The notes: generated from the letters alone by a model not told the origin. Numbered from the stretch's first letter, positions 21,263-27,769 are shown. The stretch is 64,000 nt of DNA from a virus (IMGVR_UViG_3300029288_005873:1-64000); one strand, 5' to 3'. A program made the numbers and translations.

Positions 21263-21701
21263 GCTTATCCTTTTCGGTAAGATCCACAAGGATCATAGAA
21301 AGTCTTGATACAACCTGCTCATAACGATAGCGCAGTTCGTCTCTCAATTTATCATTATCCCCGGTGGCAACAATTATTCCCCTCTGGAAATCTGCTGTAA
21401 GCAGATGTAAAATCTCATGACATGCTGTTTCGCAAGCAACCTTTTTTAATTCATTTTCGGGAAGTGATAAAAGTGATCTTGAGACATATATGTCTGCTGT
21501 ATAATGCTCAGCAGCTCCAATATCAACGCAGGCGGCACCATGTAACATATCTCCATCGTCAACGATAACAACATTTACGGTCCACACTGGATCGATCAAC
21601 AATTTTCTGTACCACTTTCGTACTGCCTTGGTGAAAACCTTACCAGCTTTTCTTTCATGTGCTGTTAATCCAGTAGACGGTCGTGCTACAACACGATCCA
21701 T
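21177..21701 (-). CDS. Hypothetical protein with HExxH motif
   Basis: ACHEILH; 3' end overlaps UDG start. Confidence 0.55.
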   Translation of the reverse strand: MDRVVARPSTGLTAHERKAGKVFTKAVRKWYRKLLIDPVWTVNVVIVDDGDMLHGAACVDIGAAEHYTADIYVSRSLLSLPENELKKVACETACHEILHLLTADFQRGIIVATGDNDKLRDELRYRYEQVVSRLSMILVDLTEKDKHVPNKGKDPGTTEEVLRMPEMPIGDRND

Positions 21702-22174
21702 TATTCACCCTTATCAGATAGGAGCTGTGTTGCCAGACGCTTTACCATGGAAGCAGATACACCCTTGTGTCCATCCTTCATTATTGCGCCAACAAGCTTA
21801 CCAATTTGTTTTGGATCAGAAATTCCCAATTCGGACATTTTGGCTTCGACAATAGGAAGAACCTCTCCCTCGCCCGCATCTTGCGGCAATAGACCATCAC
21901 AGAAGGAGATTTCAAACCTATACGATTCAGCCAATTCGGAAGCCTTTGCCTTTGGATTCTTGTCCATGATACTAAGTGCATTAGCTAAAGCCTTCCTATA
22001 TGTTTGGATAACTTTTACATATATATCATCATCATCAAGATCTCTCGGCATATTTTTCGCACATAAATATTCTTCAGCCTTCGCACGCAGACATCGCACA
22101 ATATTCTTATGTGCTGTATCATTTGCCCGTAAAGCAACTTTTAGTGTATTGGCAAGCTGTTCTTTTATAGACAT
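21701..22174 (-). CDS. GatB/YqeY domain protein
   Basis: MSIKEQL...ALRAND, EI...LLP, IGKLVGAIMK. Confidence 0.8.
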   Translation of the reverse strand: MSIKEQLANTLKVALRANDTAHKNIVRCLRAKAEEYLCAKNMPRDLDDDDIYVKVIQTYRKALANALSIMDKNPKAKASELAESYRFEISFCDGLLPQDAGEGEVLPIVEAKMSELGISDPKQIGKLVGAIMKDGHKGVSASMVKRLATQLLSDKGE

Positions 22175-22175
22175 A

Positions 22176-22967
22176 TTAATTCTCCCTAATTTTGCGGAAA
22201 CAATCATGACAAATATCGGAGGGCTTTCCAAAACACGGGCAGCGACTATCCGACAAACATAAACGACAAGGAAACCTTTTCCTGCCCTCCTCTTCCCTTT
22301 TGTTCATTTCATTCTTTATGTCATCCATGGTATGGAATTCATCATCGTTGGCTTCGGCTATACAATTACGTACATCAGACAGTGCCTCATTACGTTCTGA
22401 TGGCGAGCCCAAAAAAGTTACCTCCTCAATGACTCCGCATATAACAGAGAGTAGAGTAAACCTTTTAGAACTTGAGAATATTACCTTTTCTGGATCCAAT
22501 CCATCCCTTATATTAAATGTCTCATTTAACAAGAGGGGAAGACCTGCGATTTTATCCATGGACATGAATTCCAGAGCTGTTTGATTATCGTCAATCTTAG
22601 AACCGAGACCATATAATTCTGTTCCGCCAACTACAAGCGTCATATCGCCAATAGTCTCAGTCTCAAAAGACCAGCCCATTTCCAAAGCTACAATGTCTTC
22701 CGAACGATTTTCCTGTTCGGCTTCAGAGATTATCTCAGGTAGACAATCACAAGCGGTCAGCGTTGTAAACAAATCCTGATCAAGATCGATTAAATCAAAA
22801 AGATCCCGCAACGTTACATCTTCCGCAAAACATATGGAACTATGTAAATGAAATGCCAACTCATCTGTAGGTATCTCATATTCTTCGAATTTTTCAATAT
22901 CATTGTTCCATTCCATGCGGACGAGCTTCCCCTTACGGCGCAGCTGTACCTCATGGTGAGTTGCCAT
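22176..22967 (-). CDS. Acidic hypothetical protein with C-terminal Cys cluster
   Basis: ORF with GGAGG upstream. Confidence 0.7.
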   Translation of the reverse strand: MATHHEVQLRRKGKLVRMEWNNDIEKFEEYEIPTDELAFHLHSSICFAEDVTLRDLFDLIDLDQDLFTTLTACDCLPEIISEAEQENRSEDIVALEMGWSFETETIGDMTLVVGGTELYGLGSKIDDNQTALEFMSMDKIAGLPLLLNETFNIRDGLDPEKVIFSSSKRFTLLSVICGVIEEVTFLGSPSERNEALSDVRNCIAEANDDEFHTMDDIKNEMNKREEEGRKRFPCRLCLSDSRCPCFGKPSDICHDCFRKIREN

Positions 22968-24048
22968 CTTTTCCTCCAAAAATACTAGACTGCGTGTTGC
23001 TTTGTCCGGGTTTATGACCAAAAGAAATGCGCGGACACTGCCAAGATCCATCAACGGGTTTTTCTAGCCCATATAATCCATCCGCCATGGAAATCAGACG
23101 AGAATATCCTTCCAAAGGTTCCCTCCAACGTTTGGGGAATGCTGATAAGCCATAAGCTGCCCCTATTAGGGCACCAGCCATTGCACAAGTGGTATCAGCA
23201 TCTCCACCTTGGTTTGCTAAATCTATTAGGCATTCCTCTGGATTGTTACAAAGCTTAAGCACAGCAGCAAATGTGAGAGGAAATGACTCAACCACAAAAC
23301 TCTGGGCACCAATTTCCTTCCTTATATTGGATAAACTATCCCCAGATTGGACCATATTTATTGCCTTAGTCAGAGCTCTTGATAACGAAGCATAGAAAAT
23401 ATCATGCGGTTCATCTAATGAATTCTCAAGCATTTCGGCAAGGAATGGAGATGATAATATTGAACCACACAATCCATTAACACCACATGTAATAGCCTGA
23501 GAAACGGCATTTGCCTGAATTATACCAGCTATAGCTGGGCGCAAATCACCATGCGTCATACGGGAAATATTGATAATAGCAGTCCTTGCCTCAAATACAC
23601 TAAGTCGCTTCAAAGCTAGAAGGACACCAATTGGCGCAATCTTCATTGGCGTTCCATTTCCAGCTCCATCTATGGCAGCAGAATTCCACCAGCTTACCCC
23701 AGATTTAATCCTACCCACTCCTACCAGAGTAGATTTTCCCCAACCGCGCGGATCATTCATACAAAGCGCATGGCGTTTAGCTATGTCATCGTAATCTAAT
23801 GATTTTTTTGATACAAAAGATTCGCCCACCGCAAGCATAAGCTGAGTATCATCCGTCCATTGTCCACGGCGCAGCTTGTGTGTCTGCTGAGCAAATGAGC
23901 CTGGTTTTGGATTAACAAGGGATTTTACCGTCCCAAACGTTTCAGCTATTTTCTCTGAACTCCAACCCTCGATCGGCATACCAAGCGAATCGCCTATTGC
24001 CGTCCCCACAATAGCTCCACGAACTCTGGACCTCACTTTTACATTCAT
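22951..24048 (-). CDS. ADP-ribosylglycohydrolase (DraG/ARH family)
   Basis: AIGDSLGMPIE, WTDDTQ, GNGTPM, TH, GGDADTT. Confidence 0.92.
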   Translation of the reverse strand: MNVKVRSRVRGAIVGTAIGDSLGMPIEGWSSEKIAETFGTVKSLVNPKPGSFAQQTHKLRRGQWTDDTQLMLAVGESFVSKKSLDYDDIAKRHALCMNDPRGWGKSTLVGVGRIKSGVSWWNSAAIDGAGNGTPMKIAPIGVLLALKRLSVFEARTAIINISRMTHGDLRPAIAGIIQANAVSQAITCGVNGLCGSILSSPFLAEMLENSLDEPHDIFYASLSRALTKAINMVQSGDSLSNIRKEIGAQSFVVESFPLTFAAVLKLCNNPEECLIDLANQGGDADTTCAMAGALIGAAYGLSAFPKRWREPLEGYSRLISMADGLYGLEKPVDGSWQCPRISFGHKPGQSNTQSSIFGGKDGNSP

Positions 24049-24575
24049 TGCGTCACCAAAAAGTACGTCGACATTCCCATGATAGAACAGACCGCAAAAA
24101 TCAGCCATGCCGAAAACCAACGGAAATTGTATAAATCAAGGTTTAGATTAGATTGAAAACGCCACATGTCGCTTTGGTTTGGCTCTCTCCTAAAAATACT
24201 CGCCATACCAAAACTGAAATCGACCATATTACATATGCCAAAAACTTCACACAAAAAAGCGACAACCTTGTGCGAACGAGATATCATTAAACCAACAATG
24301 ATTGACGCAAAAAAGAAAAACAGATTCATAATCTTTGGCATTGCCGATATGAAAGCCCAACCTTTTGATGTTGGAACTTTTGAGACACATGTCGGTTCAT
24401 ATACTACATTAGCAAATGTAAATCTTCCAAGCCTCTTAGACGGAAAAGGCCAAATACTAAACTTCCAACCCCAACCTAGTTTGAGAGCTAAACCATGCGC
24501 TAACTCATGAAGCACATTCTGAAGTAGCCAAAATGGAAGTAATGCCGCCAGAAAAACAATCCAATGGATCGCCAA
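24045..24575 (-). CDS. Membrane protein with HExxH (M50/zincin-like)
   Basis: VLHELAHG, several hydrophobic helices, distal SD motif. Confidence 0.6.
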   Translation of the reverse strand: MAIHWIVFLAALLPFWLLQNVLHELAHGLALKLGWGWKFSIWPFPSKRLGRFTFANVVYEPTCVSKVPTSKGWAFISAMPKIMNLFFFFASIIVGLMISRSHKVVAFLCEVFGICNMVDFSFGMASIFRREPNQSDMWRFQSNLNLDLYNFRWFSAWLIFAVCSIMGMSTYFLVTQ

Positions 24576-24644: not shown

Positions 24645-25733
24645 ATGCCTAGTAGGCTAATGAAAATAATTGCCGCCGTTGAACCCCTTGGCGGAGAAAG
24701 CAACATTATGCTAAAGGTCTGCTCAAGGTGTCAATTGCCACAATCCATACATGACACCACCTGTAAACGCTGTGCCAAGAGGGCCAAGAGAACGGAAACC
24801 ATTCTAAAGACTAGAGCTTTGAAGGAACGCCAAACGGCTGGAGAGAAGCTCTCCAAAGATGAGATGGAATTCCTAAATAAACACCAAGGATTGCTTGACA
24901 TTAAGGTAAAGCCAGAAGATTTGGCACTTCTTGAGCAAAAACCATTTAACCTTCCGGAAGACACAGTTTATGTGCGTCCAACATTCAAAAACCGTCTACA
25001 GTTTTTCATCGACCGCATGAGGAGCGAAGGAAGGTTGGTTACAACCACCTTCGCAGCCGCTAAACAGCTTAATTTCGATAGCAAAGACGATTTTGTGAAT
25101 TTTGCAACCGACCATGGTGTTAAATCTCTCATGTCTGCCGACTGGAAAGAACATTATGCTGTATGGTCTTTAACTGATATAATTGATCTTAACCGTGAAA
25201 GACAAGCTGATCTTTCCGCAGGAGCTCTTGTAGAAAAGGAACCAGGAAACGTGCTTTCTTCAATTGATGCGGCGCATAAACTTGGCATGGCTAGCGTCAT
25301 AGAGTTTGTTGAACTGGCAACCGATTTTGGAGTTAAACCAGCAGGGTCTTTCGGTGATAAACCAGAACAAAAAGCATGGCGCCTATCTGATGTAGAAGCC
25401 CTCAGACATGTCAGGGACCTCGAGACGAGAGCTCATCAAATCGAAGAAAAGATCCAAAGGATCGAACGCGACATTGCTGCTGCTAAATCCCAGACCATGA
25501 AATATCAAGATATGTTAGCTTATCGCAAAAAGAATGAGGAGCTAAAAACCCTAGGTGACGAAAGGGCAAAGATAGAACTAGCACTAGAAGAGGAGGCTGC
25601 TAAACTCCATGAGCGGGCTATGGCTAACGAAAAAGCAAAAGCTGTAGCCGTACCAGAAATTAAAGCAAGCCGCCTAGAGAGACTACTTACCTTAGGATAT
25701 CAAGATCCCCAGAAAGAACATCAGCAAGTCTGA
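24645..25733 (+). CDS. Hypothetical protein: zinc ribbon, two internal repeats, coiled coil
   Basis: 362-aa ORF filling the gap between minus-strand genes; CxxC-x9-CxxC; GGAGG upstream. Confidence 0.8.
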   Translation: MPSRLMKIIAAVEPLGGESNIMLKVCSRCQLPQSIHDTTCKRCAKRAKRTETILKTRALKERQTAGEKLSKDEMEFLNKHQGLLDIKVKPEDLALLEQKPFNLPEDTVYVRPTFKNRLQFFIDRMRSEGRLVTTTFAAAKQLNFDSKDDFVNFATDHGVKSLMSADWKEHYAVWSLTDIIDLNRERQADLSAGALVEKEPGNVLSSIDAAHKLGMASVIEFVELATDFGVKPAGSFGDKPEQKAWRLSDVEALRHVRDLETRAHQIEEKIQRIERDIAAAKSQTMKYQDMLAYRKKNEELKTLGDERAKIELALEEEAAKLHERAMANEKAKAVAVPEIKASRLERLLTLGYQDPQKEHQQV

Positions 25734-26398
25734 CCTTTTTTCCAGTTCTATGATCTACAACCCTATCATCCTGGAATCTATACGTCCTTATTTTGTCACC
25801 ACGTTGACCTGACCCAACCTGTGATTTCCGTTGCCTATTTTCAACATCTGATGATTCCTGTATCATGAGAGCATATAATCTTGCCCTAAGTACCTCCAAA
25901 GCACGCTCCTTATTTCGTTTCTGGGACCTTTCATCCTGGCATGATACAGATATTCCAGTAGGGATATGGCGTATCACCACAGCAGTTTCGTTCTTTTGAG
26001 CATTCTGTCCGCCGTGTCCGCCGCTTCTTTTTGTTTCCCATTTTATATCCGACTCGCTAATGGCAAATTCAGCTTCCCCAACCATAGGCAAGACAGCTAC
26101 GGTCACCGTAGATGTTTGTCTACGTCCACGCTTCTCCGTCGGTGGGACCCTTTGCACTCTGTGACCGCCCGACTCGAAAAGGAAAGCTTCATATGCGCCC
26201 TTGCCTTCAACGGAAAACTCCAGCCTAGAAAATCCACCTTTTACTGGTATAGAGTCTAGGATCTCAACCTCAAAACCACGCCGTTGGCACCATCGGCAAT
26301 AAATCTGGAAAAGGTCGTTTACCAGTAGTTTAGAATCATCTCCGCCTTCTGCGCTCCGAATCTCCACAAGCGCGGCGTCAAAGACACCCCCTAGTCAT
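25687..26398 (-). CDS. Domain-1-less class I release factor (RF1-like) expressed via +1 frameshift, ~236 aa
   Basis: ESGGHRVQRVPPTE (PxT), SGGHGGQN (GGQ), CQDERSQ, RGDKIRTY; ATG at 26398 joins the main frame via CTT TGA C. Confidence 0.88.
26377..26392 (-). promoter_or_regulatory. prfB-type programmed +1 frameshift cassette
   Basis: AGGGGG TGT CTT TGA C versus E. coli prfB AGGGGG TAT CTT TGA C. Confidence 0.85.
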
Positions 26399-26400
26399 AT

Positions 26401-26655
26401 TCATTCTCCATTTTTAGTAGTTTGGCATGGTACAACCAACACGTGATAACGAGCTGTAGGCTCTAATCCATCAACACATCCAGCTAAACACCAGTTCCTA
26501 GTGCCCTTATGATTAATATATATCAATGTTTGTTCACAATTCCTGGTTCTTTCAGCTACAAATTTGGTAGCGTTAGCTAATCTTTGTTCCGATGACGTCT
26601 CACATCCTATACAAAAAAACAGGACAATCAATAGCAGCAATGCTAGAAATTTCAT
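26401..26655 (-). CDS. Small putative lipoprotein
   Basis: MKFLALLLLIVLFFCIGC signal/lipobox-like. Confidence 0.6.
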   Translation of the reverse strand: MKFLALLLLIVLFFCIGCETSSEQRLANATKFVAERTRNCEQTLIYINHKGTRNWCLAGCVDGLEPTARYHVLVVPCQTTKNGE

Positions 26656-27731
26656 GGCAACACCATTTGACCAATGAAAATAGGAGTACCATCATTCAGA
26701 CAAATGGCAAAAATAAATGGGCGATTAACAACCATGCGCGGCGTCTCTTTGAAACACAAACAACGCATAACCATTGCTGCTGCTGCTTCGGTACCTTCTT
26801 CATACACATCTACCACAGCTTTGTGAAGGATTGCCGAAATGAAAAGATCTCGCTTTCCAGAAATTCCAGAAAAATCAGCCCTAGGTAATTCGAATGCGTC
26901 AACCATTCCAAGGGATCGCATGCTATCATTAAGAGTCAACGTACTTTCGAGCTTAAACTTGGGAAAACGCAAATCGATTTCGCGCTTACTCAAACTATTA
27001 TAAACATATGCGAGTTTATTATCATCAAAAGAATCGCTGAAATTCTTGAAGTCGCGTGGCACAATTACTAACATATCCATAGAACCGTCCGCATATGGTA
27101 AACGAACAGCTTCATAATCCCCATTACTCCCATACGGAACACGGACATCATTAGATACCATCATATCGACAGAGCTTGTGGTACCATCTAAAGCGTAAAA
27201 ATCTGCCTTACGTGTAATACCAGCTTCAAATGGCCTACTCCATGGAGCTTTAAAATGAATAGCATTGGCTAACACGACGCGAGTCAAAGAATCTGAAGGA
27301 ATCAAATCTTTAATCAGGTTGTTTGTGTTCTCCTCAACCCACTTATTGATTTTCTGTCGAGCTGTTTCTGGATTGGCGAAATCTACTTCACGCACAAAAT
27401 CCCCAAGTTTCTGTCTATAATCAGAAAGTATTTCATACCCATTCTGAAGCCAGGCAGAATTTGCTGAGGCAAGATTGATATCTGTACAACCTGTTGATGC
27501 TAAATCCATAATTGCTTTAACAATCCCATCTGGAGATGTTGGATATCCAAGCGCTAAGGCCATCTGATTAGCTGTCTCACCGCGTGCGCCCAAATACGCA
27601 AGGGATAAAGCTGACGACACACTGTGTGGAGAAAAGAAAAGGTTTTTGGTTCTATCAAATGTGCCATACAGACGAAGCGCAAATTTACAAAATCCTTCCA
27701 CTATTTGTTTATTTTCCACAATTGTCTCCAT
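26652..27731 (-). CDS. Serpin (serine protease inhibitor family)
   Basis: NLFFSPHS, GARGETA, INKWVEENT, LANAIHFKAPW, PKFKL, EEGTEAAAA hinge, NRPFIF. Confidence 0.95.
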   Translation of the reverse strand: METIVENKQIVEGFCKFALRLYGTFDRTKNLFFSPHSVSSALSLAYLGARGETANQMALALGYPTSPDGIVKAIMDLASTGCTDINLASANSAWLQNGYEILSDYRQKLGDFVREVDFANPETARQKINKWVEENTNNLIKDLIPSDSLTRVVLANAIHFKAPWSRPFEAGITRKADFYALDGTTSSVDMMVSNDVRVPYGSNGDYEAVRLPYADGSMDMLVIVPRDFKNFSDSFDDNKLAYVYNSLSKREIDLRFPKFKLESTLTLNDSMRSLGMVDAFELPRADFSGISGKRDLFISAILHKAVVDVYEEGTEAAAAMVMRCLCFKETPRMVVNRPFIFAICLNDGTPIFIGQMVLP

Positions 27732-27769
27732 AAAAAAGTCGAGCATAGGCTCACCTGCCTATGCCCGAC
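27732..27769 (-). terminator. Intrinsic terminator closing the ncRNA unit
   Basis: GTCGGGCATAGGC-AGGTGA-GCCTATGCTCGAC hairpin followed by T6. Confidence 0.85.

Follow-up and report, generated by a model that had tools for sequence, protein, structure and literature searches.

A prfB-like cassette ahead of a frame-broken RF1-type release-factor gene in a 442-kb virus genome

The frame-broken gene and its leader

The DNA analyzed here, called the window, comprises the initial 64 kb (64,000 nucleotides) of the 441,904-base IMG/VR virus record IMGVR_UViG_3300029288_005873, for which CheckV gives a completeness of 100%. Almost all of its genes lie on the minus strand, among them the gene for a short class-I release factor (RF) of the RF1 type. 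This gene is broken in frame and stands behind a cassette like that of bacterial prfB, the gene for RF2, as the original prediction from the sequence had noticed. Judged by the comparisons described below, it is most likely expressed by programmed +1 frameshifting of the ribosome, in the manner of prfB.

On the minus strand the locus reads GGAG-A-ATG-AAT-ATG-ACT-AGG-GGG-TGT-CTT-TGA-C. The Shine-Dalgarno (SD) sequence GGAG (26406-26409) lies 7 nucleotides (nt) ahead of the ATG at 26396-26398, which has the best SD spacing and opens a 6-codon leader, MTRGCL. An alternative ATG at 26402-26404 overlaps the TGA of the upstream gene (ATGA) and gives the 8-codon leader MNMTRGCL; translation may start there rather than at 26398, since 8 codons are also found in two relatives, L003 and L082. 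The leader contains the internal SD-like hexamer AGGGGG (26387-26392), the spacer TGT (26384-26386), the slip codon CTT for leucine (26381-26383), and the zero-frame stop TGA (26378-26380), followed by C at 26377; this stop is the gate. After the slip, the +1 frame continues GAC GCC GCG CTT GTG GAG ATT and stays open for 230 codons (25687-26379), encoding domains 2, 3, and 4 of an RF1-type factor and ending in a TAA at 25689-25687. Its first codon is GAC, though the genome prefers GAT over GAC 70:30. The coordinates, the leader, and the predicted junction MTRGCL-DAALVEIR were all recovered on the minus strand, as was the need for a +1 shift to reach the conserved N-terminus. The shift at codon 6 that had been proposed would apply to a start at ATG 26398, whereas ATG 26404 would give a leader of 8 codons.

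The reference cassette of E. coli prfB, taken from NC_000913.3, is AGGGGG TAT CTT TGA C; 15 of the 16 bases are identical in the window, in agreement with the single-base difference claimed earlier, and the hexamer and its 3-nt distance from the slip codon are those of E. coli. The pattern [AG]GG[AG]GG-N3-CTT-TGA occurs once on the two strands of the 442-kb genome, at the gate, where base composition predicts 0.15 matches. The site shows what characterizes a prfB-type cassette: a hexamer 3 nt from the slip codon, CTT TGA C, an obligatory +1 frame, and conservation in register. No stimulatory RNA structure was found at the site (fold z-score -1.1) and no Rfam match; a downstream structure is likewise absent from prfB.

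The start codon used in the open reading frame (ORF) track is a GTG at 26365-26367, which is probably not the real start. It is the sole in-frame start codon, the frame being closed 9 codons upstream of the V in VEIR, but it lies 19 nt past AGGGGG, the distance that had been given for it, and no SD sequence is present within those 19 nt. An out-of-frame TTG 5 nt past AGGGGG was also considered as a start and rejected, as it lies in the third frame.

The encoded factor

By its sequence the factor is of the RF1 type and lacks domain 1. In Pfam, the PCRF match is confined to positions 102-194 of 194 and is followed by the RF-1 domain. Among the NCBIfam models, prfA scores 290 bits, prfB 207, prfH 96, and ArfB 37, every score being under its cut-off. 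The prfA match (TIGR00019) covers model positions 114-341 of 361 and stays below the equivalog cut-off of 423.25 because domain 1 is missing. Comparison with solved structures gave the same ranking, with 226 bits for RF1, 143 for RF2, and 63 for PrfH, and the best PDB match is an RF1 (E 4e-66). An RF2 identity (TIGR00020) is not supported, the factor having PPT in place of SPF and a higher score for prfA than for prfB. The canonical RF1, or PrfA (TIGR00019, NF001859; PDB 4v63, 5j30), is thus the closest known protein by both hidden Markov models and structures.

Aligned to RF1 of T. thermophilus, the tripeptide PPT (26137-26145, minus strand) takes the place of P184-V185-T186, the PxT 'anticodon' of RF1, and the GGQ motif of peptidyl-tRNA hydrolysis lies at 26005-26013 on the same strand. 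Residues G116, Q181, P184, T186 (as PPT), E187, T194, and GGQ are kept. Unlike in the canonical RF1, E119 is replaced by Asp, Ile192 by Arg, and His193 by Gln, domain 1 is absent, and the sequence falls in a separate viral clade. The Arg-Gln pair that replaces Ile192-His193 is found within GRRQTS, at 26122-26127 on the minus strand. His193 stacks on the second base of the stop codon and is universal in RF1 and RF2. Gln at this position is usual in the frameshift-type phage factors, while a clade of viral relatives with an in-frame TGA mostly retains His. The RF1 type, with VPPTE as its PxT motif, GGQ kept, and domain 1 missing, had been read from the sequence alone, and both the model scores and the alignment bear this out.

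It had also been suggested that the protein might rescue ribosomes in the manner of PrfH or ArfB, which our data do not support. PrfH (RF-H), encoded with RtcB2, is a class-I RF paralogue that likewise lacks domain 1 and keeps GGQ. However, its model (TIGR03072) gives 96 bits against a cut-off of 166.65, its PDB matches are weak (E 4e-16 and 5e-11), no RtcB is encoded in the 442-kb genome, and the window factor keeps the canonical PxT loop. The ArfB identity (NF006718) was rejected as well: its 36.8 bits, against a cut-off of 100, come only from residues 103-137, the GGQ region, whereas full domains 2 and 4 are present, the codon-recognition domain among them.

The AlphaFold2 model, built with 26 homologues, has a mean predicted local distance difference test score (pLDDT) of 82.6 and a predicted template modelling score (pTM) of 0.78. 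Its first beta-strand is formed by residues 2-9 of the +1 product, so that it starts three residues ahead of the GTG. Domain 1 has been described as dispensable for release and required for the action of RF3 (Mora et al., as cited in PMC1586002). From its absence, peptide release by the factor at UAA and UAG is predicted to proceed without recycling assisted by RF3.

Relatives of the gene and rival explanations

A scan of IMG/VR gave 80 loci, 77 of them with the conserved motif, and placed two, L002 and L003, in the clade of the window. A scan of metagenomes returned mostly bacterial RF1 and a single clade member, L082. About 45 further clade members are known here by protein sequence. In a maximum-likelihood tree, the viral short factors form one clade separate from the bacterial full-length RF1 (Shimodaira-Hasegawa-like approximate likelihood ratio test, SH-aLRT, 100), in which the window, L002, L003, and L082 cluster together (SH-aLRT 93).

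The cassette was found in three of the four clade members compared as DNA, at 56-61% nt identity. L003 (65% amino acid and 61% nt identity to the window) reads AGGAGG-N7-ATG-ACA-AAC-ACA-AGG-AGG-TCT-CTT-TGA-C, and L082 (65% amino acid identity), whose decoding motifs are identical to those of the window, reads AAGGAGG-N5-ATG-AAT-AAG-TTT-GGG-AGG-TAT-CTT-TAG-T. CTT TGA C with an internal SD, the combination to be looked for in homologous short RF genes, is therefore present in L003, whereas L082 has TAG-T instead of TGA-C. The three loci have a common layout, with a strong SD sequence, an ATG, 9 nt, an SD-like hexamer, a T-N-T spacer, CTT, and a stop. In all three, CTT precedes the V of VEIR by 16 nt, and the leader codons are unrelated. 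The earliest in-frame start codon of L003 is 23 codons inside the conserved domain, which leaves no usable in-frame start and makes the shift obligatory there.

These loci also bear on an account without a frameshift, namely that the factor starts at GTG 26367 (MEIRSAEGG...) and that the leader is an upstream ORF of the ordinary kind or a mini-ORF present by chance; in one version, ribosomes terminate at the UGA and re-initiate 10 nt downstream at the GTG. This codon is in frame and is the pick of the gene callers (P0002), and in L082 a TTG stands in frame one codon ahead of the homologous position. Nevertheless, we consider such a start very improbable. Besides the missing SD sequence, the codon homologous to GTG 26367 is GTC in L003, with the next in-frame start 23 codons on, and GTT in L082. 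What is conserved is the cassette and not a start codon downstream of it. In most relatives the protein starts 2-4 residues ahead of hEIR, and the first strand of the structural model begins before the GTG. Moreover, a cassette expected by chance 0.15 times per genome is found in the same register in three loci.

The N-termini of the clade proteins in databases are consistent with a frameshift. Most begin at the L or V of LVEIR or inside helix 1; such odd starts are what a frameshift would lead one to expect, gene callers lacking a proper in-frame start. In every protein that extends further upstream, x-F-D or x-F-S occurs at a constant distance, with P0040 offset by one residue, and we infer that these ends fit NNC-TTT-GAC and NNC-TTT-AGT, respectively. 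L082 encodes the database protein P0017, whose apparent in-frame 'M' is a TTG within the cassette that a gene caller took as the start. Other database proteins with an in-frame N-terminus are for this reason unreliable as evidence against a shift.

Several points weigh against a prfB-type frameshift in the window. L002, a locus on a 340-kb viral contig with 77% identity and the nearest relative compared as DNA, starts in frame (METTALIEIR; L002:2990-3010) and has no cassette. Removing one A after ACT from the window gives an in-frame MTGGVFD, the exact N-terminus of database protein P0015. Leader cassettes were observed in DNA only three times. The simple autoregulation of prfB does not apply: the gate is UGA, and a factor of the PxT type is expected to read UAA and UAG. 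Finally, we know of no studied precedent for a slip site 6-8 codons from the start.

The first two of these points would favor an indel of assembly or sequencing, or a recent mutation that inactivated the gene, whose true in-frame sequence would then be ATG ACT GGG GGT GTC TTT GAC. We give this explanation hardly any credence. Two independent and deeply diverged contigs are shifted at the same place behind different leader sequences, and the break recreates a complete prfB signal, unlike a random indel. The rest of the ORF is intact, with all catalytic and decoding motifs kept, and the artefactual 'M' of P0017 shows how an in-frame end can arise in the databases. Homologs in frame without the cassette, which had been named as contrary evidence, are thus exemplified by L002 and not by L003 or L082. 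The cassette-free L002 implies that the gate was gained or lost recently within the clade; the prfB of many bacterial lineages is likewise without a frameshift.

A degenerate leader cassette combined with the pattern hEIR.AEGG was found in IMG/VR only in the L003 contig, and in the GTDB species genomes it gave three chance CTTTGG matches, none of them in an RF gene. Neither a tblastn search for relatives above 60% identity among GenBank phages and plasmids nor a blastn search of the locus against GenBank phages gave a match.

In the wider family of viral short RF1 genes, the gate is found elsewhere. In 28 of the 77 IMG/VR loci the frame breaks about 32 codons past hEIR and the gene runs on in the +1 frame. 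CTT precedes the stop in 28 of 28 of these genes, as it does in the three leader cassettes; 24 of them have TGA as the stop and 4 have TAG, and CGGAGG-GGT-CTT-TGA-C is a typical context. A further 43 of the 77 loci (within L006-L081) have an in-frame stop (42 TGA, 1 TAG) at a conserved Trp about 31 codons past hEIR with the frame unchanged, which could be a readthrough gate or a recoding of TGA as Trp in those phages. The remaining 6 loci, L002 and L003 among them, have no internal gate. The internal-cassette and in-frame-TGA genes form the other two groups of the tree. The internal-gate genes thus share with the window the protein family, the CTT-stop +1 cassette, the SD-like element, and the choice of TGA or TAG; they differ in that their gate lies some 32 codons into domain 2 (RRG-L-stop) or consists of an in-frame TGA at Trp, while that of the window stands ahead of the first conserved residue, in a separate leader. 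At the site of the internal gate of the sister clade, the window has an uninterrupted RRGFE, which might be a healed copy of an internal cassette; RF1 of T. thermophilus also has GFE there.

Across the 31 cassettes (3 leader, 28 internal), TAA is absent and TGA-T is never found. TGA and TAG are swapped between sister sequences (L011 and L019, L009 and L010), and the decoding motifs are the same in TGA-gated and TAG-gated factors. The swap, together with the lack of TAA, indicates that the conserved feature is a stop for which the host has only one factor. The cassette that had been noticed is real and conserved, while the specific tie to RF2 does not hold, given the CTT-TAG-T of L082 and the TGA/TAG swaps; the factor might sense a shortage of RF2 or might read UGA itself.

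The same observations might be taken to mean that the frameshift is real and that the factor has widened its specificity to UAA, UAG, and UGA, the gate then being a true autoregulation as in prfB, with either stop. The decoding motifs common to TGA-gated and TAG-gated factors and the swap between sisters would agree with this, and the replacements of His193 by Gln and Ile192 by Arg in the frameshift-type factors might contribute. However, the factor retains PxT, Q181, and T194 like RF1, SPF and Ser-x-Thr are absent, and a gate needing no more than a single-factor stop would account for the swap equally well. A widened specificity seems unlikely on this evidence.

Genomic setting, proposed mechanism, and significance

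The leader follows an 84-residue ORF (26401-26655, minus strand) with a hydrophobic N-terminus and no Pfam family, whose ATGA overlap couples it to the leader. This ORF is in turn preceded by a full-length serpin gene (26652-27746, minus strand; Pfam E 3e-94), which heads a run of serpin, 84-residue ORF, and RF leader; two ATGA stop-start overlaps join the three. Immediately upstream of the serpin start lies a strong terminator-like hairpin (27770-27737). At the other end, a 362-residue ORF on the plus strand (24645-25733), also without a Pfam family, is convergent with the RF gene and overlaps its last 47 bases; the local AT skew flips at this ORF. Just downstream of the RF gene, the minus strand encodes a YqeY/GatB-like protein (21701-22231) and an ADP-ribosylglycohydrolase (22951-24120). 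Between 44063 and 62054, the minus-strand ORFs are interspersed with eight tRNA genes, including two for tRNA-Leu(CAA) and an adjacent Met-Leu pair.

In the whole 442-kb genome, ARAGORN identified 22 tRNAs and one transfer-messenger RNA (tmRNA) and no suppressor tRNA. The tmRNA gene lies outside the window, at G000:C1:219262-219637 on the minus strand, with the tag ANNNANQMLAAA; SmpB was not found in the genome. Neither a second gene with an RF domain nor RtcB or RRF was found in it. An alternative genetic code was considered and rejected: the standard code fits, ORFs of at least 150 residues covering 83% of the genome, no suppressor tRNA is encoded, and all three stops are used, with TGA ending 205 of these ORFs, TAG 133, and TAA 143. 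UGA is therefore the commonest stop of the phage (43%). SD-like tetramers precede 52% of the phage ORFs, against 14% in a control window, which supports the use of SD sequences by the phage.

At a prfB site, the anti-SD of the ribosome pairs with the hexamer 3 nt behind a CUU in the P site, and this pairing, combined with slow termination at a stop in poor context, lets tRNA-Leu re-pair on UUU. We propose that the gene in the window would work likewise. Ribosomes would start at ATG 26404 or 26398, probably by coupling to the upstream ORF, and translate a leader of 8 or 6 codons. Once CUU occupies the P site and UGA-C the A site, the AGGGGG 3 nt upstream would pair with the anti-SD of the 16S rRNA. 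Slow termination at UGA would then let peptidyl-tRNA-Leu slip from CUU to UUU, and decoding would resume at GAC, giving a predicted product M(NM)TRGCL-DAALVEIR... of about 236-238 residues.

The regulatory logic is a matter of conjecture. Most likely, to judge from the cassettes compared, synthesis of the factor depends on how slowly ribosomes terminate at a stop that a single host factor reads. Frameshifting may become more frequent when RF2 of the host is limiting, and the phage would then make a factor of its own under termination strain. UGA not being cognate to a PxT factor, the direct feedback loop of prfB does not apply. The loop could instead be one of load sharing, in which additional RF1-type activity would take UAA stops and free RF2 for UGA; in the UAG-gated relatives it would be direct. 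Alternatively, the gate may act as a plain sensor or as a limiter.

Frameshifting at CUU-UGA-C is a textbook case of translational autoregulation and is regarded as a property of RF2 alone. The window has in common with bacterial prfB the AGGGGG, the 3-nt spacer, CUU, UGA, the C at position +4, a main ORF in the +1 frame, and a class-I RF as the product. It differs in that the gene is viral and the product RF1-type (PxT), with UGA non-cognate. The site also lies at codons 25-26 in prfB, inside domain 1, and at codons 6-8 in the window, in a leader without conserved residues. A study from 2025, in which more than 12,000 bacterial genomes were surveyed, states that the frameshift has been shown for prfB and not for prfA, gave no convincing case in prfA, and found TAG in 0 of 8,164 motifs, in contrast to the relatives of the window, some of which use UAG (PMC12421855). 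In large phages, RFs are found alongside tRNAs and tmRNA, as here. RF1 and RF2 genes of huge or recoded phages are listed by Al-Shayeb 2020 (PMC7162821) and in the preprint by Borges et al. (10.1101/2021.08.26.457843), in both cases without mention of a frameshift or gate, and the phage of the window differs from the recoded ones in using the standard code with three stops. In a full-text literature search, incomplete in its coverage, no RF gene of the RF1 type or of a phage was found to be described with a frameshift.

The signal known from prfB is thus found on a viral RF1-type factor, in a leader of only 6-8 codons, in a family whose members swap UGA and UAG while their decoding residues stay unchanged. 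For annotation, it matters that gene callers assign wrong or truncated N-termini to such factors. If the frameshift is real, as we think likely, the device of prfB would be a portable sensor of termination capacity that can be wired to a non-cognate factor, and the natural cassette of about 40 nt would allow SD tension and RF competition to be studied near initiation. Were the unlikely widening of specificity true, the factor would be a natural omnipotent class-I factor of the bacterial type, with which the phage takes over termination from both host factors, and the leader cassette would be a self-regulating switch working with UGA or UAG. With a programmed frameshift as we prefer to read it, huge phages would monitor and top up the termination capacity of their hosts while infecting them.

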